Source: a virus. Taken from it: a stretch of DNA of 60,249 nt. The notes beneath the pieces are model-generated. The model saw nothing but the letters and a program-made list of their open reading frames with translations, was not told where the DNA came from and searched no databases. The stretch covers positions 1 to 60,249 of the IMG/VR virus record IMGVR_UViG_3300037510_000266, one strand, 5' to 3'. The position numbers and the translations under genes are program-made. Shown in pieces: positions 3,579 through 52,751 of this stretch; the stretch's first letter is position 1, and every line of letters begins with the position of its first letter.

Positions 3579-4853
3579 ATGGCTGATTCACATACGTTTA
3601 CCAATCAAGACGCTGTCCTGAAAGATGTGTACGACGAGCGCACCATGCTCGAACAGTCGTACCAAGAGGCGCCGTTCTTCGGGATGGTCGAGAAGGAGAT
3701 CGGCGAGGACGCCGGTGGCCGGCGCTATGTCCAAGCGATCGAGTTTGAGAACCCAGGCGGCGCATCGGCGGATTATGCGAAATCGCGACTGAATGCTACG
3801 ACGTCTCAGTACGACGCGTTCATCATCGCGACAACGCAGCAGCACCAGTACATCCAGGTGGAACATCGCCTGATGCTGGCGTCGATGAAAAAGCCGGAGT
3901 CTTTCGTCAAGGCGCTTGATCAGTTCGATCGCGGATTCAAGTCGCTCGGCCAGAAGATCTCGCGTAGGATGTTCAGAACGCTCGGCGGTTCGATCGGCAA
4001 GCTGGCGATCAGTTCGACGACCACGACCACGCTGTCTTTTGCGGATGATGCGTCGATCTTCTACTGCCAGATCGGCATGAAGCTCGCGTTTGCCGCGGCG
4101 GATGGTACCGGATCTCTGCGTGACGGCGGCGATACGGTGACGATCACGAAGATCAATCACTCGAGCCGAACTGTCACCATCAATGCGGATCTGGCGACGA
4201 CGGTCGCAGGTGTTCAGACGACGGATTTCGTGTTCCCGGATGGTGACTTCGGGGCATGTCTGTCTGGTCTCGAGGACTGGCTTCCTGTCGATGATCGCGA
4301 TACTCGTCTTGCGACGTCATTTGCCAGCGTCGATCGTTCCGTGTCCGAGACGCTTCTCGGTGGTGTGTTCTTCGATGGATCCACGACGGGATCGCTCGAT
4401 GAAACGATCATCCTGCTGAATGCCGAGGTGAGTAACTTTAGTGGCATGATCGATACCGCGCTGACCAACCCGCGGCAGATCGCAAACCTCGTTCTCACGA
4501 AGAACAGCAAGGTGCGCATCGAAGCCAGCGTGACAGCAAAGCCCGTCGACAGCGAAGGTAAGGTGCTTACCGTCGGGTTCAAGGGGTTCCGGATCCTCGT
4601 CGGTGATAAGAGCGTCATCCTCATGGGTGATCGCGCATGTCCCGAGACGCGGCTGTACGAGCTCCAGATGAACACGTGGCGCCTGTGGCACACGGGTAAC
4701 CTGATCAACTGGCAGGGTGAGGTGTACGGCGAGCCGCGCATCAAGTCGTCACGTACGAGTGATGATGCCGAGGCGCAGCTCGATGTGTACTGCAACCTCG
4801 GATGCCGAGCGCCGGGCAAGAACGGCGTCGCCAAGCTGCGGGCGGCATCGTAA
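3579..4853 (+). CDS. Major capsid protein (putative)
   Basis: 424 aa, directly after the scaffold-like gene. Size and position are typical of HK97-fold coat proteins. No motif-level proof. Confidence 0.7.
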   Translation: MADSHTFTNQDAVLKDVYDERTMLEQSYQEAPFFGMVEKEIGEDAGGRRYVQAIEFENPGGASADYAKSRLNATTSQYDAFIIATTQQHQYIQVEHRLMLASMKKPESFVKALDQFDRGFKSLGQKISRRMFRTLGGSIGKLAISSTTTTTLSFADDASIFYCQIGMKLAFAAADGTGSLRDGGDTVTITKINHSSRTVTINADLATTVAGVQTTDFVFPDGDFGACLSGLEDWLPVDDRDTRLATSFASVDRSVSETLLGGVFFDGSTTGSLDETIILLNAEVSNFSGMIDTALTNPRQIANLVLTKNSKVRIEASVTAKPVDSEGKVLTVGFKGFRILVGDKSVILMGDRACPETRLYELQMNTWRLWHTGNLINWQGEVYGEPRIKSSRTSDDAEAQLDVYCNLGCRAPGKNGVAKLRAAS

Positions 4854-5230
4854 TGACACGCGAACAAACCACCTACGGCGTGGAGGGATTGCGCACAGAA
4901 ATGCGCATTCTCACCGCGTCTTTCACGGGTGGAGGTGCCGGCGAGCTCGTGAACAACGAGACATTGAGTGAGATCGCATCGACGACGCGCACGGGTGTGG
5001 GAACGCACACGGTTGTCTTCAACCGGTTCTATCCCGAGCTCAAGGTGCGTCCGATCTTCTCGTTCACCGGCACACTGCCTTTCACGGGTCGATGCAGTGC
5101 CATCGACTACACCGCGGATCCACCCACGGCAACCTTCGTGTTTTCCGTCGGCGCATTCGAAACTGACATCCCTACCACCGATACCGTGGACATCACCTGG
5201 ATCGTCCGCAACTCAGCAAGGAACTCGTAA
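4853..5230 (+). CDS. Hypothetical virion protein
   Basis: ATG at 4853 overlaps the capsid stop (TAATG), giving 125 aa. The 4802 start in the ORF track would overlap the capsid gene. Confidence 0.6.
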   Translation: MTREQTTYGVEGLRTEMRILTASFTGGGAGELVNNETLSEIASTTRTGVGTHTVVFNRFYPELKVRPIFSFTGTLPFTGRCSAIDYTADPPTATFVFSVGAFETDIPTTDTVDITWIVRNSARNS

Positions 5231-5231
5231 C

Positions 5232-5963
5232 ATGGCTGGACTCAGCGAAACGCAACTCACCCGGCTTGCCGGATTCAATCAAGACGCGCTTGACGGCCTT
5301 CGGGCTCAGCTCGGCGAAGGTGTTGATGCGGTCAGCGCGGCTGGCGCGCTCGATCTGACGAAGTACGTGACCGAGCTGACCGTCAGCGGTACCAAAGCGT
5401 ACACGCTCGCGGCGCCGACGGTCGCCACGCAGCGCAAGCGCATCGTGTGCGTGTCGGCCGCGAGCACTCCGCTCGGGACGGTTACGATCTCGAGCCCGGA
5501 CGACACCACCGGGTTCGTGTGCTCGACCACCTTCACGTTCACCGACGTAGGCCAGTCGATCGATCTGATTGCCACGTCGGGGCTTAAGTGGCGGTGCATA
5601 CGTGTTGATCGCGCGGGCGGCGCCGCGGATGCCGTGGTCATCGGTACCACGGTACTCACGGGGTTGAACCTGTGGAAGCGTTACTGCTGCTCGGTGACCG
5701 GTACAGTCTCATCGACGAGTACCAAGGCACTTCCGAACGGTAGCGCCGTCGGTGAGCGATGCATCGTCACGTGCTCGACGGCTGCATCAACGCCGGTTGG
5801 AAGCATCGATGGCGTGTTCAAGGGCATGATCAACGAGGACTACACGCACCTCGGCGCGATCGGCGTGGTGGCATCTGCGACCGTCGTCGGTGACTGCGCC
5901 GTGCTCGAATGGACCGGTCAGGCGTGGGCGGTCATGTACCAGAATGGTTGCACGCTCTCGTAA
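5232..5963 (+). CDS. Hypothetical virion protein with internal duplication
   Basis: ATG at 5232, 243 aa. Two similar segments (..RIVCVSAASTPLGTV.. and ..RCIVTCSTAASTPVGSI..). The upstream part of track ORF 4968 overlaps the previous gene. Confidence 0.6.
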   Translation: MAGLSETQLTRLAGFNQDALDGLRAQLGEGVDAVSAAGALDLTKYVTELTVSGTKAYTLAAPTVATQRKRIVCVSAASTPLGTVTISSPDDTTGFVCSTTFTFTDVGQSIDLIATSGLKWRCIRVDRAGGAADAVVIGTTVLTGLNLWKRYCCSVTGTVSSTSTKALPNGSAVGERCIVTCSTAASTPVGSIDGVFKGMINEDYTHLGAIGVVASATVVGDCAVLEWTGQAWAVMYQNGCTLS

Positions 5964-24138: not shown

Positions 24139-24372
24139 CTACTCGTTCCTCGCGATGGCCGCGTTCGCCCACATGACGGTCTCTTCGAAATGTGCCAATG
24201 CAAGCAACTGCTCGCGTGACGACGGAGTCTCAGTGGCGATCATCGTAGCAAGTTCCTTCGCCTTGTCGCGAATGGCGACATAGCGATCGCGCTGATCCTC
24301 CTTCGGCGCGTGATACGTGAATGCGAAGTTGATCTGATCGGTGACTCGTTGTTGTAGTTCGTACTTGGACAT
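24139..24372 (-). CDS. Hypothetical small helical protein
   Basis: 77 aa. GGAAG lies 6 nt upstream of the ATG. C-terminal ..LLALAHFEETVMWANAAIARNE. Conserved-looking, but I cannot name the family. Confidence 0.6.
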   Translation of the reverse strand: MSKYELQQRVTDQINFAFTYHAPKEDQRDRYVAIRDKAKELATMIATETPSSREQLLALAHFEETVMWANAAIARNE

Positions 24373-24382
24373 AGTTACTTCC

Positions 24383-24449
24383 GTGGATCTGACAGGATTC
24401 GAACCTGTGTGCGTTGATGGAAACGCGCTCTGCCAGAGCCCAGATCCAT
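24383..24449 (-). tRNA. Degenerate tRNA-like element (CAT in a 6-nt loop)
   Basis: Read on the - strand: acceptor GGATCTG/CAGATCC, T-arm ACAGG-TTCGAAT-CCTGT, anticodon stem GCGTT/AACGC with a 6-nt loop TCCATC, reduced D-arm, 2-nt variable region. About 64-67 nt in total. Confidence 0.3.
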
Positions 24450-26380: not shown

Positions 26381-27592
26381 CTACGCGGCGGATCCGTCGC
26401 TTGCGCCATCGACGATTGGCGGCGCACTACCATGGCCGAACTTGCACACGTCGCCGCTTGGCGAACGGAATTGAGGCTCATGGCACACCGAGCACAGCGT
26501 GCCAGTCGGCTCGTTTTTGACGAGTCTGGCCACAGCCGACACGATGCGCTGATCCTCGGCAAGCGACATCGATGCCGCAAACTTCTCTGCTTCGCGTTTG
26601 ATCCACTTGCCGCGCTCATCGTATCGCTTGCGGATCTCCGTCTTGAGCGACGGCACATCAGCCGCAAGCTTGCCAAGGTCGCCAACCAAAGCTTTCAGAT
26701 CTTGCTCAGATGCGGCAAGCTCGATGCGATGGAAGAGATCCGCCGAGCGTGCCTCGGTTAGATCCGGCATGTTCTCGACAGGTCTAGCAACCGGAGGAGC
26801 TGGCTCATCGCCATCGTTGACCCATCCGTAGATCTTGCGACCGAAGACATCACCTGGACGCTCGAATTTATCTCCGTCATGAATGACGCCATCAAGACGC
26901 GTCTTAACAACGGTAAGTGCGTGATCATGATCCATCACGCCGACAAGTGTAAATTCGTAACGAACTCCATCTCGCTGGATTTCTTCCATGCCTAGTTCGA
27001 CGATCTTGGTTTTACCCTTATCGTCGGTCTCCATCGCATGTGCCACCTTCATACGCATTGTGACGATGAGATGGCTCGGCGTGGACAGCATCGCATCCAC
27101 AAAGCGGTTGTGCTCCGGTGTGATCTTGCGCCACGCAGCCCAGCTGTTGGCGCCGCGTTCCTCCTCCTTCCCCTTGCGATCAAGGGATCCTCCAGTTCCC
27201 GCCCACGCATGAGAGATTGAGTCGGCGATCGTGATGTCGTACCCCTCCTTGGCGGCATCCTTGATCACGTTGATATAGGATTCCGGAGTGAACGGTGGGT
27301 TCAACTCGTCCACATCGATGGGGAATTTGCGCAGTTGTTTGATATACGCGTATCCGTCCTCCGGATTCATCGCGTCGTATCGAGCGCGTTCGGCACGGGA
27401 CATCGCATAGAGCTTCGCCGATTGCTGTTCGGAGTCGGCGACGGCAATGCGACCGACACCGCCGCGCTTGCGAATCTCATATGAGAGCGATGCCGCCGTG
27501 GCCATCGCCGAAAACGTTTTCCCGGTGCCTGGACCACCCATCAGTGCTAGCCGTAGGCGTACTTGCTCTCGGTATGCTGGTTTGAATGCCAT
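26381..27592 (-). CDS. Sak4-like (AAA_24/RecA-fold) recombination ATPase with C-terminal zinc ribbon
   Basis: Walker A LMGGPGTGKTF near the N-terminus. C-terminal CSVCHEPQFRSPSGDVCKFGH. Start taken at the ATG at 27592. Confidence 0.6.
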   Translation of the reverse strand: MAFKPAYREQVRLRLALMGGPGTGKTFSAMATAASLSYEIRKRGGVGRIAVADSEQQSAKLYAMSRAERARYDAMNPEDGYAYIKQLRKFPIDVDELNPPFTPESYINVIKDAAKEGYDITIADSISHAWAGTGGSLDRKGKEEERGANSWAAWRKITPEHNRFVDAMLSTPSHLIVTMRMKVAHAMETDDKGKTKIVELGMEEIQRDGVRYEFTLVGVMDHDHALTVVKTRLDGVIHDGDKFERPGDVFGRKIYGWVNDGDEPAPPVARPVENMPDLTEARSADLFHRIELAASEQDLKALVGDLGKLAADVPSLKTEIRKRYDERGKWIKREAEKFAASMSLAEDQRIVSAVARLVKNEPTGTLCSVCHEPQFRSPSGDVCKFGHGSAPPIVDGASDGSAA

Positions 27593-27603
27593 GGCGGTTG
27601 GCC

Positions 27604-28233
27604 TCAGAACGGAATAACGTCGTGACCGTTGGAGCAAGTCAGGTAGTCATCCTTGCTCCTGAACATCGGCGATCCGCAGTCCGCGCATGGATCGCCTGCT
27701 TTCTGTTCGGTATCTCCATTGCCAGGAGCTTCCCCAACGGAGCTACCAGGAGCCTCCCCACCGGAGCCACGCTGTCCACGACTGGCGCGATACTCCTCGT
27801 CGGATCGCTGAGCTTCTTCCATCATCTCGACCATGAGCGCATCGGTGTCGTCGGATGCCGGCCTGACGGCGCGCGCCGCGGCCTCGTTCGGGGCGATCTT
27901 GTCGACGGCCCAGAACCCATCGCCGAACTCGACCCAGCGAGCCTGGATGCGCACGGTCTTGCCGGCCTTCGCTGCATTCATGATGTCTTCACGGATCGTC
28001 TTAGGAGATTTGAACGCCCACCCGAGCACACGAAGTTTGTTGAACGTGAAGATGTTGTTCTTCGCGTCCCACTTAGTGACCTCGAACTTTATCGTCTTAT
28101 CCTTACAAGGACCTTCGGTGATCTTGAACGCCACCGAGGCGCATGGCGTCTCGACGCCTCCCTTGGTGATCATTCCATAAGATGCGTCTGTGACTTGAGC
28201 CGTGTACCATGATTCATTCGTGAAATCAGCCAT
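27604..28233 (-). CDS. Single-stranded DNA-binding protein (DUF669-like) with zinc ribbon and IPF tip
   Basis: 209 aa. Acidic and Gly-rich linker, CADCGSPMFRSKDDYLTCSNGH, and a terminal DVIPF like the SSB protein-interaction tip. Synteny with Sak4-like ATPase and exonuclease. Confidence 0.5.
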   Translation of the reverse strand: MADFTNESWYTAQVTDASYGMITKGGVETPCASVAFKITEGPCKDKTIKFEVTKWDAKNNIFTFNKLRVLGWAFKSPKTIREDIMNAAKAGKTVRIQARWVEFGDGFWAVDKIAPNEAAARAVRPASDDTDALMVEMMEEAQRSDEEYRASRGQRGSGGEAPGSSVGEAPGNGDTEQKAGDPCADCGSPMFRSKDDYLTCSNGHDVIPF

Positions 28234-28266
28234 ATATCCTCATTGTTGTCGGTTAATTCGGTGCGT

Positions 28267-28369
28267 GCCACGACCCGGGATCGAACCAGGATTACCGCGC
28301 TACATCCGGAAAGGAGACAGATGTAATGACCACAGTGCGCGACGTGTTACCGTTTGACACTATCGTGGC
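28267..28369 (-). tRNA. tRNA-like gene with a ~31-nt insertion in the anticodon loop (103 nt)
   Basis: Read on the - strand: acceptor GCCACGA/TCGTGGC (7 bp), D-arm GTGT-CAAACGGTA-ACAC, T-arm CCTGG-TTCGATC-CCGGG. The anticodon stem TCGCG/CGCGG encloses 38 nt, including a 7-bp hairpin ACATCTG/CGGATGT. Confidence 0.45.
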
Positions 28370-28384
28370 GAGATATCGGTGTGC

Positions 28385-28433
28385 GCCGCGGATCCTGACT
28401 ACATTCAGTCTCAAGTTCATCAGGATCCGCGGC
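28385..28433. other. Strong hairpin (14-bp perfect stem, 21-nt loop)
   Basis: gccgcggatcctga at 28385-28398 pairs with tcaggatccgcggc at 28420-28433. Lies between the 28477 gene end and the tRNA-like gene. Confidence 0.7.
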
Positions 28434-28476
28434 CAGCGGTGACATCACCGCTGAATAAGACAATACAGCAACCTAG

Positions 28477-28794
28477 TTACTTCGTCCAGTCGCTCGGCGG
28501 TTGATGATCATCGACGAGACGATCGTGCTTGGCCAGTGCATCCATCAGCTCGTTATCTGATTGCACTGTTCGCGGTTTGGCGTCGATCGAAAACGACTGA
28601 TTCCACTTGCGCGCAGCTTCCAACACGACGCGCGCTGCGTCGAGTTCTGCCATCAATGAGAACAGCGCGTTGGATCCATCGAGATCCTGCACCCATGACT
28701 CGCCGTACCGAAGGATATGTATTTTGTAGTCGTCCTTCGGCTGGACGAATGTGTACTTTCCGCTTGATACGGAAACCTTGAACTCTTGGCTCAT
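28477..28794 (-). CDS. Hypothetical protein
   Basis: 105-aa ORF coupled to the upstream small ORF by a TAATG overlap. Confidence 0.6.
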   Translation of the reverse strand: MSQEFKVSVSSGKYTFVQPKDDYKIHILRYGESWVQDLDGSNALFSLMAELDAARVVLEAARKWNQSFSIDAKPRTVQSDNELMDALAKHDRLVDDHQPPSDWTK

Positions 28795-28937
28795 TATCTC
28801 CTCAATTTTTTCTGCGACTTGCGCAGATCGAGACGATTGGCGCGATACTGACGCTCAAGTGCGCGCCGAGATCCGGGCGCCGGAAACATCACGCGATAGA
28901 GCGCGATGACGAATACGGTAAAGATGACGGCGATCAT
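28794..28937 (-). CDS. Small single-pass membrane protein (47 aa, below ORF-track cutoff)
   Basis: Hand translation gives MIAVIFTVFVIALYRVMFPAPGSRRALERQYRANRLDLRKSQKKLRR. ATGA overlap upstream and TAATG overlap downstream. Confidence 0.5.
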   Translation of the reverse strand: MIAVIFTVFVIALYRVMFPAPGSRRALERQYRANRLDLRKSQKKLRR

Positions 28938-29188
28938 GCTTGCTCCTCTTCGTCGAGCTGCACAAGCAACTCAGACAGCGTATCACGAAGCCATCGCACA
29001 GTGTTGTGATCTAACGACACATTCGCGATCGTCTTCACATTACGCGCATTGACGTTGTAGACATGCTCGGGCAACGTCGTCTCGTCTGCAAGCACGAACG
29101 CGTAAGTATCATCTGGATCGTAATCTACCCGGAGCCGTGCTCCTGGATCGACGTGGGATTGGTTGTATATGCGGACGAATCTAGGCAT
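28934..29188 (-). CDS. Hypothetical protein
   Basis: 84-aa ORF in the leftward operon. Confidence 0.55.
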   Translation of the reverse strand: MPRFVRIYNQSHVDPGARLRVDYDPDDTYAFVLADETTLPEHVYNVNARNVKTIANVSLDHNTVRWLRDTLSELLVQLDEEEQA

Positions 29189-29432
29189 GGCTCACCAGTG
29201 GAATGCTATCCCAATATGCATGGACATCGGAATCAGAAGGAACTTCATTGCTCGGAACACGACCATCCGGCTCCACGAGTCCGCCGGCATCCTCGTCGTA
29301 TCCGCAATCCGGGTTGTCGCACCATGCCGGACTGCTGATGAATCCGACGCCTACATCAACCTCGTCGTACGTCAGCTCGTTATCGCAGTTGGGACACTTC
29401 GGCGGACGTCGATGACGCGCGTCCCAGCTCAT
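29181..29432 (-). CDS. Hypothetical zinc-ribbon protein
   Basis: The ATG at 29432 overlaps the upstream stop (ATGA). CPNC...CDNPDC motifs. Confidence 0.55.
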   Translation of the reverse strand: MSWDARHRRPPKCPNCDNELTYDEVDVGVGFISSPAWCDNPDCGYDEDAGGLVEPDGRVPSNEVPSDSDVHAYWDSIPLVSHA

Positions 29433-29794
29433 GCTGCGACCCTCCGTGCTATCTCGCGCAACGAAGCGACGTCGATCGCGCGCCACATATGCATATTGCC
29501 GTAGCCGAGTCGGATTGTGTGCTCGGCGCCGAGACGCGACACGTACGACTGCGCCTTGGCGCGCGTGCTACACGTGATGCCGAGGCGCGGCGCCAGCGGG
29601 CCATCCACGAGCCACTGGTGATGCAACCCGTGATCGAAGGCGTGGTCACGCTCGGCGACGTACGCGGCTACCACGGCAAGTGCCATGGGATCGCGGTGCG
29701 CCGCGGCGACGTAGTGAACGAGGTCATCGAGGCCGAGCTCGCGGACCTCGGCGAGGACGTCGGCGAGCCAGTCGTGTGCGATGGATGTGATCAT
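29429..29794 (-). CDS. Hypothetical protein (first gene of a leaderless unit)
   Basis: 121-aa ORF whose ATG lies 6 nt downstream of a -10-like hexamer. Confidence 0.6.
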   Translation of the reverse strand: MITSIAHDWLADVLAEVRELGLDDLVHYVAAAHRDPMALAVVAAYVAERDHAFDHGLHHQWLVDGPLAPRLGITCSTRAKAQSYVSRLGAEHTIRLGYGNMHMWRAIDVASLREIARRVAA

Positions 29795-29800
29795 GACGTC

Positions 29801-29829
29801 AACTTAGCCGATCGTGGCTTGGTTGTCAA
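29801..29829 (-). promoter_or_regulatory. Sigma70-type promoter, leaderless (TTGACA-N17-TAAGTT-N6-ATG)
   Basis: - strand: -35 TTGACA at 29829-29824, 17-nt spacer, -10 TAAGTT at 29806-29801, then gacgtc, then the ATG at 29794. Confidence 0.55.
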
Positions 29830-29850
29830 GTCTCGATCGGCTATGAGCGA

Positions 29851-30162
29851 TCACGGAGACACCTCTACACGATCGAACACATGTCCACGCGACACGGCTG
29901 CGTACCTGGCACGCTCAAGTGCCTTGCGTGTACGTGACCATCGCGTTGGCACCATCACCGGTGCGATGCCCAACAACTTAGCAGCACGCAGCCGATGTGT
30001 TCCTTCCGTCGCAAACCATGCGCCAGATTTATCATCGAAGTACGCGCGGATCCTTGGCGAACCGAGCTGCTTCATCGCTTCAATGACGTCTCGTAGATGT
30101 TCAATGGAATAGTGTTCGTGTAGCGGCGTAACGACAACTCCGACTGTAAGCTTAGTAGTCAT
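29851..30162 (-). CDS. ParB/Srx-like nuclease-domain protein
   Basis: 103 aa with ..WFATEGTHRLRAAKLLGIAPVMV (DGxHR-type motif). Confidence 0.5.
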   Translation of the reverse strand: MTTKLTVGVVVTPLHEHYSIEHLRDVIEAMKQLGSPRIRAYFDDKSGAWFATEGTHRLRAAKLLGIAPVMVPTRWSRTRKALERARYAAVSRGHVFDRVEVSP

Positions 30163-30170
30163 AGTAGATA

Positions 30171-30199
30171 ACCCTAGCCGATCTTGACTCCCCGGTCAA
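30171..30199 (-). promoter_or_regulatory. Leftward promoter (TTGACC-N17-TAGGGT-N8-ATG)
   Basis: - strand: -35 at 30199-30194, -10 at 30176-30171, ATG at 30162. Confidence 0.5.
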
Positions 30200-30212
30200 G
30201 TCGTGGGAGGCT
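30184..30212 (+). promoter_or_regulatory. Rightward promoter (TTGACT-N17-GAGGCT-N6-ATG), overlapping back-to-back with the leftward -35
   Basis: -35 TTGACT at 30184-30189, weak -10 GAGGCT at 30207-30212, ATG at 30219. The two -35 boxes form the inverted repeat CTTGAC-N6-GTCAAG at 30183-30200. Confidence 0.4.
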
Positions 30213-30218
30213 AAGGAG

Positions 30219-30425
30219 ATGAAAAAGCGGACCAAGTGCAAGGGCGCGAAGCTCCTCACGGAATGGCGCGGCGACCGATCACAACCCGAGGTGGCCGAAA
30301 TCCTCGGATGCACATCGCAACAGGTCTCCCACTGGGAAACCGGCTTCGCTAAACCTAACGCCGATCGACGGTTCCTGATCGCCATCGCGACCAACGGCGC
30401 CGTGCCAGCGGACAGTTGGTCATGA
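30219..30425 (+). CDS. XRE/Cro-like HTH transcriptional regulator
   Basis: 68 aa. SQPEVAEILGCTSQQVSHWETG is a typical HTH_3 motif. First gene of the rightward block at a divergent promoter region. Confidence 0.7.
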   Translation: MKKRTKCKGAKLLTEWRGDRSQPEVAEILGCTSQQVSHWETGFAKPNADRRFLIAIATNGAVPADSWS

Positions 30426-52678: not shown

Positions 52679-52749
52679 TGCCGATTAGCTTAATTGGTAG
52701 AGCAACGCCAGTGTAGCGGTGTATGGCGGTTCGAGTCCGCCATCGGCAG
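52679..52749 (+). tRNA. tRNA-like gene with an 8-nt anticodon loop
   Basis: Acceptor TGCCGAT/ATCGGCA, D-arm GCTT-AATTGGTA-GAGC, T-arm GGCGG-TTCGAGT-CCGCC. The anticodon stem ACGCC/GGTGT encloses AGTGTAGC (8 nt). The variable region is only 2 nt. Confidence 0.5.
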
Positions 52750-52751
52750 CG

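Follow-up and report, generated by a model that had tools for sequence, protein, structure and literature searches.

We analysed a window of 60,249 bases, the entire contig of an uncultured phage (IMG/VR record IMGVR_UViG_3300037510_000266; 59% G+C), which carries a tRNA-shaped element of 104 nucleotides (nt) on its minus strand. The element occupies a 243-nt gap between two genes of the same strand, one for a protein of 105 amino acids (aa) and one for an SSB-like protein of 209 aa (Table 1). Reading leftward, the operon consists of small genes, the element, the ssb-like gene, genes for an AAA_24 ATPase and a DUF2800/PD-(D/E)XK nuclease and, at its end, an Acb2/Tad1 sponge gene. We infer that this is the leftward replication/recombination operon of the phage and that the element is co-transcribed with it.

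Read from 28369 to 28266, the RNA is GCCACGA-UA-GUGU-CAAACGGUA-ACAC-G-UCGCGC-ACUGUGGUCAU-UACAUCUG-UCUCCUUUC-CGGAUGUA-GCGCGG-UAAU-CCUGG-UUCGAUC-CCGGG-UCGUGGC-A. A preliminary description of this locus had claimed a perfect acceptor stem of 7 base pairs (bp), a D arm with GG in its loop and a T arm with TTCGATC, and direct reading of the minus strand gave exactly these. U8, A9 and G26 are all present, the D stem has 4 bp and the D loop 9 nt (the GG included), and the variable loop is TAAT. The stem TCGCG/CGCGG does enclose 38 nt, as had been stated, and a possible sixth C-G pair extends it to 6 bp; the 7-bp inner hairpin ACATCTG/CGGATGT with its 9-nt loop (TCTCCTTTC) was likewise recovered and reaches 8 bp when the flanking T-A pair is counted. 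The coordinates given at the time, 28267-28369, fit the body of the element and fall one base short of its extent, which includes the discriminator A at 28266.

Instead of the usual 7-nt anticodon loop the RNA thus has a stem of 6 bp whose 5' strand runs into an 11-nt bulge, followed by an 8-bp hairpin with a 9-nt loop. In the window copy this hairpin is stacked straight on the outer stem, with zero unpaired bases on the 3' strand, and the 3' end of its loop is a conserved YCCG. No CCA is encoded, and A73 is followed by CG in all members of the family described below. The tRNA-Arg of the window begins GCCACCG, as against GCCACGA for the element.

Table 1. Positions in the window of the element, its parts and the associated genes, hairpin and promoters
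Feature	Coordinates	Strand	Details
Whole tRNA-shaped element	28266..28369	-	104 nt including discriminator A73 at 28266; direct reading and family model R1
Acceptor stem, 5' strand GCCACGA	28363..28369	-	pairs with 28267-28273 (TCGTGGC); 7 perfect pairs
D arm, stem GTGT/ACAC	28344..28360	-	loop CAAACGGTA with conserved GG; reading, covariation, RNAalifold
Outer ('anticodon') stem, 5' strand TCGCGC	28337..28342	-	pairs with 28295-28300 (GCGCGG)
Bulge, 5' strand	28326..28336	-	11 nt, ACUGUGGUCAU; alignments
Inner hairpin	28301..28325	-	UACAUCUG / CGGAUGUA; 9-nt pyrimidine-rich loop UCUCCUUUC at 28309-28317
T arm	28274..28290	-	CCTGG / TTCGATC / CCGGG; reading, covariation, motif count
Downstream gene, 209 aa, SSB-like	27604..28233	-	ATG 32 nt after A73; alignment
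Upstream gene, 105 aa, phrog_3052	28477..28794	-	unknown function; syntenic in L054 and L239
14-bp perfect hairpin	28385..28433	-	ends 15 nt upstream of the element; 21-nt loop contains GACUGAAUGUA
Second degenerate tRNA-like element	24384..24447	-	64 nt; ends 11 nt before the Acb2/Tad1 gene (24139-24372, -)
Promoter P1	30160..30199	-	-35 TTGACC (30199-30194), -10 TAGGGT (30176-30171), ATG 30162
Promoter P2	29792..29829	-	-35 TTGACA (29829-29824), -10 TAAGTT (29806-29801), ATG 29794
Five leaderless-type starts	ATG 30162(-), 29794(-), 49670(-), 50971(-), 47858(+)		predicted 5' end AUGACCA

Conservation and covariation in related phage contigs

Homologues of the 209-aa protein were collected in two search steps and the contigs that encode them retrieved; L054 was added by a pattern scan filtered for stem pairing, and L256 through a search with an upstream gene family. 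The sample comprises 11 contigs, about 9 of them distinct, and all sequences are metagenomic (L235 is the IMG/VR copy of the phage of L054, and L237 is nearly identical to L241). We found the element kept at the same locus in 10 further contigs, and wherever a contig carries the ssb-like gene, a related element precedes that gene on its coding strand. Full-length copies are present in L001, L002, L054 (the same as L235), L236, L237 (nearly L241), L238, L239, L240 and L256, while L003 has only an acceptor/T-arm minihelix at the element's position. The gap to the ssb-like start is 26-94 nt in all full-length members except L238, and also for the L003 minihelix; in most members it is 26-38 nt, with about 94 nt in L240 and about 425 nt in L238. 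The SSB-like proteins of the 11 contigs are merely 36-83% identical.

Pairing is kept through extensive sequence change. The acceptor stem occurs as GCCACGA, GCCACGG/CCGTGGC, GCTGCGG/CCGCGGC and GCCCCGA/TCGGGGC, and the outer stem as TCGCGC, ACGCTC/GAGCGT, CAGCGC/GCGCTG, CAACTC/GAGTTG and CTACTC/GAGTAG; the inner hairpin differs in sequence in nearly every genome. From an unguided MAFFT alignment, RNAalifold predicted the acceptor, D, outer and T helices, with double changes in 11 of 21 pairs. In a structural alignment made by hand, which padding with N kept intact in MAFFT, 97.3% of 291 cells are paired and both sides have changed in 20 of 31 pairs; fitting this alignment to the structure inflates the percentage paired, though not the count of compensatory pairs relative to slid controls. 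None of 500 shuffles reached the observed pairing values, and structures slid by 1-3 columns pair at 25-40%. By helix, double changes affect 8 of 8 pairs in the inner hairpin, 4 of 7 columns in the outer stem, 3 of 4 in the D stem, 3 of 5 in the T stem, and positions 4 and 7 of the acceptor stem. The covariation check in relatives that the preliminary description had called for thus shows all five helices covarying, which excludes the decayed gene that it had offered as one explanation; its concern that the arms might prove unconserved in relatives is answered by arms that are kept and covary across 11 sequences. We conclude that the acceptor stem, the D arm with its GG, the T arm, U8 and A73 are kept by selection, and that the cloverleaf is competent to form the L shape.

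The elongated arm, a helix of roughly twice the usual length at the place of the anticodon loop, has a conserved plan. In 11 genomes it consists of a 6-7-bp outer stem, a bulge of 9-12 nt on the 5' strand only, and a 5-8-bp inner helix stacked on the outer one and closed by an 8-12-nt pyrimidine-rich loop that ends in YCCG. The 3' end of the bulge reads K-GGUCAU: GGUC is invariant in the 11 genomes, UGGUCAU or GGGUCAU is found in 9, and the exceptions are GGUCAA in L054 and GGUCCU in L256.

We assign the RNA to the minus strand because G-U pairs outnumber C-A cells there (13 versus 6 in the family alignment) and because the T-loop and D-loop identities and the orientation of the genes agree with it. 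The plus strand from 28301 to 28331 reads GGAAAGGAGACAGATGTAATGACC, which resembles a Shine-Dalgarno (SD) sequence, nine nucleotides and ATGACC, and could be taken as the beginning of a small gene on the opposite strand, with GGAG (the complement of the loop) as SD and the complement of GGTCAT as start; the sole change of CAU to CAA would even yield TTG, also a start codon. The antisense open reading frames, however, run to 38, 36, 28, 81, 36, 27, 75, 3 and 3 codons with nothing alike past the first two residues, Met-Thr, the spacing from SD to ATG varies between 5 and 13 nt, G-U pairs are in excess on the minus strand, and the T-loop and D-loop identities make sense only on that strand. We give an opposite-strand gene next to no credence.

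Standard tools overlook the element. On the window, ARAGORN in default mode reported three ordinary tRNAs only, and Rfam at the gathering score matched the same number of ordinary tRNAs elsewhere and left the element unmatched; at E<=10 on a 451-nt slice there was still no tRNA match for it. We therefore built a covariance model, R1, from the manual structural alignment of 10 members. Under this model the members score 66-83 bits, the window element 74.9 bits (E 6e-14), and L256, which was left out of model building, 60.1 bits (E about 1e-10), whereas the ordinary tRNAs of the window score 24-42 bits; the E-values of this home-made model are rough. A covariance-model score below noise, named earlier as grounds for dropping the element, was thus obtained with the generic Rfam tRNA model and not with the family model, and because the latter scores very high, we regard that yardstick as misleading here. 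A tmRNA was also considered and rejected: there is no G3:U70 (3:70 is C-G, or U-G in L238), no tag frame and no ARAGORN or Rfam call, and the RNA has 104 nt only.

The element shares the body plan of canonical phage tRNA genes, of which the window has three: the 7-bp acceptor stem, a D arm with G18 G19, a T arm with T54-Psi55-C56, and a discriminator. Unlike them it encloses 36-38 nt where a 7-nt loop would be expected, has no U33/R37 and offers no anticodon that could be defined consistently. An intron-containing tRNA gene, whose short insert would be spliced out to leave a decoding tRNA, might account for this, and the insert, at about 22-33 nt, does resemble archaeal and eukaryal tRNA introns in length. 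With its intron option, a check that had been proposed beforehand, ARAGORN called a 'tRNA with intron' in 10 of 10 sequences. The solutions were inconsistent, however, a differing one being forced on each homologue, with eight anticodons (among them Tyr-GTA, His-ATG, Val-GAC, Arg-CCT, Leu-CAG, Asn-ATT and Pro-CGG) and five insertion points (31/32, 32/33, 34/35, 37/38 and 38/39) in ten homologues. There is no conserved mature anticodon, because the residual 'loop' is drawn from the covarying 3' strand of the inner hairpin, and no bulge-helix-bulge motif, because at the junction at most one base of the 3' strand is unpaired (0-1 nt). Whichever contiguous 31 nt are removed from the window copy, position 33 is A rather than U, in keeping with the earlier remark that no U33/R37 loop can be placed. 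Also as remarked, the insert is too short for a group I tRNA intron (22-36 nt, compared with a core of more than about 200 nt). A Pfam scan of 58 window open reading frames and further ones found no RNA ligase, RtcB, splicing endonuclease, CCA-adding enzyme or reverse transcriptase. A spliced tRNA is highly improbable.

The same tRNA body could instead serve as a mimic or decoy in which A73 and the CAU near the anticodon position would titrate or deceive a tRNA-binding protein such as MetRS or TilS, a tRNA-cleaving defence nuclease or a tRNA-modifying enzyme. The L-shape-competent body with its conserved D/T-loop partners (G18 G19 and T54-C56) would suit such a role, U-CAU-R stands at the 3' end of the bulge in 9 of 11 members, beside the helix junction and at about the normal distance from the elbow, and the anti-defence gene Acb2/Tad1 belongs to the same operon. 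Yet the CAU is not invariant (CAA in L054, CCU in L256), there are no G3:U70, initiator features or encoded CCA, minihelix variants would be unable to mimic an anticodon arm, and no partner protein can be identified. We consider a decoy, also among the explanations offered earlier, unlikely.

Beyond the sample, searches returned little. No DNA similarity to cultured phages, near or distant, was found for the window, and its primase and AAA_24 proteins have about 32-39% identity at most to any phage record. Neither IMG/VR scans with the ssb-like and AAA_24 proteins singly nor an exact T-arm/acceptor pattern in IMG/VR gave a match. A loose-pattern IMG/VR match, L004, lies inside a coding region and was dismissed as chance. 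Loose-pattern scans of metagenomes and genomes gave 120 and 110 matches, nearly all chance, from which the stem-pairing filter left L054 alone as new, and the 13 matches to a third loose DNA pattern were all chance. R1 can be used for finding further members.

Proposed processing of the operon transcript and other tRNA-like modules

With modest confidence we favour the reading that the element is a conserved, non-decoding, tRNA-shaped punctuation signal that is cut out of the operon transcript, as its anatomy, its position and precedent suggest. Of the explanations offered in the preliminary description, which included a tRNA-like processing signal within the operon, this one is best supported, by the fixed position, the minihelix-only variant and the elements at other junctions. 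Host RNase P would cut at the 5' end of the element, so that the upstream mRNA ended just past long hairpins, which could plausibly stabilise its 3' end. The cut after A73 would be made by enzymes that process the 3' ends of tRNAs, either RNase Z or endonucleases together with exonucleases, and the leader of the resulting ssb mRNA would measure about 30 nt. Together the two cuts would release a stable tRNA-shaped RNA of about 104 nt, in which the tRNA body might carry the conserved arm as a natural 'tRNA scaffold'.

We base this reading on the fixed position, the acceptor/T half that is always kept, the other tRNA-like elements at junctions, the covariation, and an excess of the motif used to find plant mitochondrial t-elements, GGTTCRANYCC (PMC1920247). 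Those t-elements are cut by RNase P and RNase Z, which creates 5' and 3' ends of mRNAs (PMC1920247, PMC3790967). Like them, the phage element is a non-canonical cloverleaf that keeps its acceptor stem and a GGTTCRANYCC T arm, and it sits between genes on their coding strand, near the presumed mRNA ends. A simple scan placed no promoter or terminator between the element and its neighbours, and co-transcription is to be expected. Within the window the motif occurs six times against 0.25 expected, namely in three tRNAs, in two tRNA-like elements and as one chance match in a coding region. The phage elements differ from t-elements in that the host is bacterial, the cleavage is a proposal, several types occur in one operon, and the type upstream of ssb has a conserved, elongated, motif-bearing anticodon arm.

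RNase P, RNase Z and the CCA-adding enzyme all recognise a tRNA by its acceptor/T minihelix. R1 brought up further tRNA-like elements in intergenic gaps of the operon. The second element of the window (24384-24447) combines a 7-bp acceptor stem and a T arm with a 5-bp stem that closes a 6-nt loop, and the hairpin GCTCT-GGC-AGAGC stands where a D arm would be; the element scores 16.5 bits under R1 and 27.9 bits with the Rfam tRNA model, below the 29-bit cut-off. The gene it precedes matches Pfam Acb2_Tad1_hairpin at 1.4e-18. Counterparts stand before Acb2/Tad1 genes in L002 (8105-8174, homologous), L239 (4615-4685) and L240 (4153-4210, without an anticodon arm), and the window and L002 copies each end 10-16 nt before the gene. 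Near the main element itself, L001 has an extra tRNA-like element directly upstream (4794-4866; aberrant anticodon arm with a 6-nt loop, called 'tRNA-???'), L240 an extra acceptor/T-arm minihelix directly downstream (about 744-800), and L003 the minihelix in its place (548-588), with a linker, CAGGACAU, that resembles the GGUCAU motif. The sequences thus indicate that this phage group keeps tRNA-shaped modules at gene junctions, with conserved acceptor and T arms and an anticodon region that is shortened, deleted or elaborated.

Two further observations concern these modules. Between the AAA_24 gene and the next gene, L239 (3104-3192, +) and L241 (2131-2222, +) have a different tRNA-like element of 89-92 nt with a long anticodon arm and discriminator C. 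The tRNA-His(GTG) of the window (52679-52750, +) has a low score (46 bits) and a weak anticodon stem, and the elements upstream of acb2 in L239 and L054 have a segment in common with it (ACGCCAGTGTAGCG / ACGCCATGGTAGCG); some punctuation elements may derive from this tRNA.

The constant distance of 26-38 nt to the ssb start in most members, and the presence of two pyrimidine-rich single-stranded segments, could also mean that the element stays on the mRNA as a cis-regulatory ssb leader, either as a 5' stabiliser or as an operator whose bulge and loop are bound by the SSB-like protein. Autoregulation through the leader of T4 gene 32 is a precedent for such an operator. Tipping the balance the other way, tRNA-like elements in the same operon also precede unrelated genes (acb2 and others), the distance grows to about 94 nt in L240 and about 425 nt in L238, and pairing of the apical loop with the ssb SD sequence amounts to at most 4 bp and does not covary. 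An ssb leader is accordingly quite improbable.

Several points weigh against a punctuation signal as well. We infer the cleavage, the released RNA and its stability alike, and neither the type of RNase P nor the 3'-processing route of the host can be named from metagenomic contigs. The pair counts rest on a manual alignment fitted to the structure, which the unguided RNAalifold prediction and the slid controls partly offset, and the minimum-free-energy fold of a single sequence is not in every case the cloverleaf, which is often so with tRNAs. Moreover, processing by itself gives no reason for conserving a long arm with its bulge motif and the YCCG of its loop; it seems insufficient for the arm because minihelices appear to suffice elsewhere.

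Precedents for processing come from several systems. Bacterial RNase P cuts operon mRNAs and phage regulatory RNAs, and in mascRNA/MALAT1-type transcripts a tRNA-like fold attracts RNase P and RNase Z, so that a small tRNA-like RNA is set free (PMC4919922). The latter are eukaryotic nuclear long non-coding RNAs with a shortened anticodon arm, whereas the arm of the phage element is extended. In E. coli, RNAs put into a tRNA where its anticodon loop had been undergo processing and are stabilised (PMC3753655); the element resembles this engineered 'tRNA scaffold' in keeping the acceptor, D and T arms, with a hairpin in place of the anticodon loop, and would be the natural counterpart of what is a laboratory construct processed and protected in bacteria (PMC3753655). 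Bacterial Y RNAs have another topology. In YrlA the tRNA-like acceptor is closed and the RNA ends lie in the Ro-binding stem, whereas the ends of the phage element lie at the acceptor stem, its long arm is loop-closed and Rfam returned no match. By analogy, the working principle of a punctuation signal is closest to that of mitochondrial t-elements, tRNA punctuation and mascRNA-type signals.

Our searches of the open-access literature turned up no account of this RNA or of tRNA-like punctuation in phage operons. If the processing reading is right, soil phages split one operon transcript into separately stable ssb and acb2 mRNAs, the latter for an anti-CBASS/Thoeris sponge, much as mitochondria do, and generic tRNA finders and Rfam overlook a class of structured phage RNAs.

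Promoters of predicted leaderless mRNAs and the bulge of the element

Should the released RNA have a function of its own, the most likely use of the arm would be base pairing through the bulge sequence UGGUCAU, and its partner would be the AUGACCA 5' ends of leaderless mRNAs of the phage. Promoters of the form TTGACA-17-TAnnnT, followed after 6-8 nt by ATGAYYA, occur five times in the window, against 0.00 expected from 100 randomisations (starts in Table 1). Promoters of the type TTGACA-17-TAnnnT-ATG are predicted to give leaderless mRNAs, with transcription starts placed from promoter geometry. Two of them, P1 and P2, drive the operon containing the element. A simple scan of 27400-30400 found no sigma-70-type promoter and no intrinsic terminator, which fits read-through transcription from P1/P2. 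The full layout with ATGAYYA is also present in L001, L002, L054, L236 and L255, and equivalent promoters head the operon in L001, L002, L054, L236 and L256, the starts in L256 being AUGGAY. L255, which has the 121-aa gene family, shows the leaderless promoters but no element within the 9.4 kb available.

The predicted leaderless mRNA from P2 begins AUGAUCACA and is complementary to the bulge UGUGGUCAU over 9 bp with one G-U, and that from P1 begins AUGACUAC and forms 8 bp with the bulge of the element, one of them G-U. Corresponding duplexes can be drawn in L001 (CGUGGUCAU with AUGACCACG), in L002 (UUGGGUCAU with AUGACCCAA), in L236 (UCC-UGGUCAU with AUGACCA-A-GGA, one A bulged in the mRNA) and in L054 (UCC-UGGUCA with UGACCA-A-GGA, as in L236 minus the first pair). 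Since the targets in the window and L002 are homologous genes, positions 7 and 8 represent true compensatory changes. Energies were taken from the bulge alone; RNAduplex with the whole arm against the mRNAs was uninformative, as it ignores the structure of the arm itself.

As an addition to processing, then, the bulge of the released RNA might pair with the 5' end and start codon of the leaderless phage mRNAs, and so prevent initiation by 70S ribosomes or alter how the first cistrons decay from their 5' ends, in the manner of the C4 (P1/P7) and CI (P4) RNAs. Such an antisense role is a tentative proposal, more doubtful than probable. Equally speculative is the corollary that a tRNA has here become a scaffolded antisense RNA, with a 'super-anticodon' of 7-10 nt made up of UGGUCAU and genome-specific bases, while the other tRNA-like elements of the operon are pure punctuation. 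An RNase P-released tRNA mimic embedded in the transcript would then govern translation initiation on leaderless early genes or the stability of their 5' ends. In its favour, UGGUCAU is the only conserved single-stranded 7-mer of the element and the exact complement of AUGACCA, and the five ATGAYYA promoters of the window far exceed expectation. Five of 6 genomes have a bulge complementary to predicted leaderless 5' ends, with extensions specific to the genome; the cognate duplexes, at -10.6 to -14.5 kcal/mol, rank in the top 0.1-3% of 12-mers from the same locus, and their summed match length was equalled in just 2 of 120 permutations of the genome labels.

Other results speak against antisense pairing. 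The L256 bulge ACUGGUCCU reaches only -6.5 kcal/mol with AUGGAUA/AUGGACA, a value attained by 13% of 12-mers, and in L054 the replacement of CAU by CAA creates a mismatch with A1 of the mRNA. Genes in these phages often begin with ATGACC in any case, both partners are in view in six genomes only, two of them close relatives, and the pairing depends on transcription starts deduced from geometry. The YCCG of the apical loop has no partner, the first 60 nt of the leaderless mRNAs containing no consistent CGGR, and the minihelix-only relative is without the arm altogether. Separately, we considered the UGGU of the bulge as a T-box-like binder of the 3'-ACCA ends of tRNAs, which is disfavoured by GGGU in L002 and L237.

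The nearest relatives of an antisense role in working principle would be the C4 and CI RNAs, which RNase P cuts from a longer transcript by way of a tRNA-like stem (PMC4919922). They differ in having no D or T arms, whereas the phage element offers a bulge seed at the anticodon position and has leaderless 5' termini as its proposed targets. In C4 and CI, exposed loops pair with phage mRNAs in the leader or in the region of translation initiation. The Rfam C4 family did not match the element at the gathering score or, on 451 nt, at E<=10. If the antisense proposal holds, the element is a natural tRNA-scaffolded regulator aimed at leaderless mRNAs and gives a handle on the control of leaderless translation; it would also mark an evolutionary route from anticodon-codon pairing to the seed of a small RNA.

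Flanking genes and hairpins

The 209-aa protein had no match in Pfam or PHROG. In the alignment it shows an acidic C-terminal tail ending in IPF or LPF, and tails of this type are a hallmark of bacterial SSB proteins. We take it to be SSB-like from this tail motif and from synteny with the AAA_24 and DUF2800 genes, and it probably represents a new SSB-like family. Most members also have a zinc-ribbon-like C-terminal motif, CxxC...CxNGH, which is absent in P0002 and P0003.

The 14-bp perfect hairpin that the preliminary description had placed 15 nt upstream of the element is indeed there (28433-28385) and is itself preceded directly by a 9-bp hairpin. At the same place upstream of its element, L054 has an 18-bp perfect hairpin (about 5868-5922, -, equal to L235 2290-2345). 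These phages are distant relatives and the two stems are entirely different, but the loops have the motif GA(G)GACUGAAUGUA in common. After cleavage this hairpin may serve the upstream mRNA as a 3'-end stabiliser, or it may be a separate RNA motif. Its CUGAUGA was considered as part of a hammerhead or C/D-box RNA and set aside, the Rfam sR40 match being at chance level (18 bits versus 50).

Elsewhere in the window, Pfam identified a DNA polymerase III beta clamp, an N6/N4 methylase, an ADP-ribosyltransferase domain, a cpYpsA SLOG protein and an SU10-type adaptor; the first open reading frame (637 aa) matched nothing in the phage collection or Pfam. In L238, the start region of ssb (…ATAAATGTCTGAACT…) is present twice within 780-1000, about 200 nt apart, which together with the distance of about 425 nt between element and gene suggests a local duplication or insertion.

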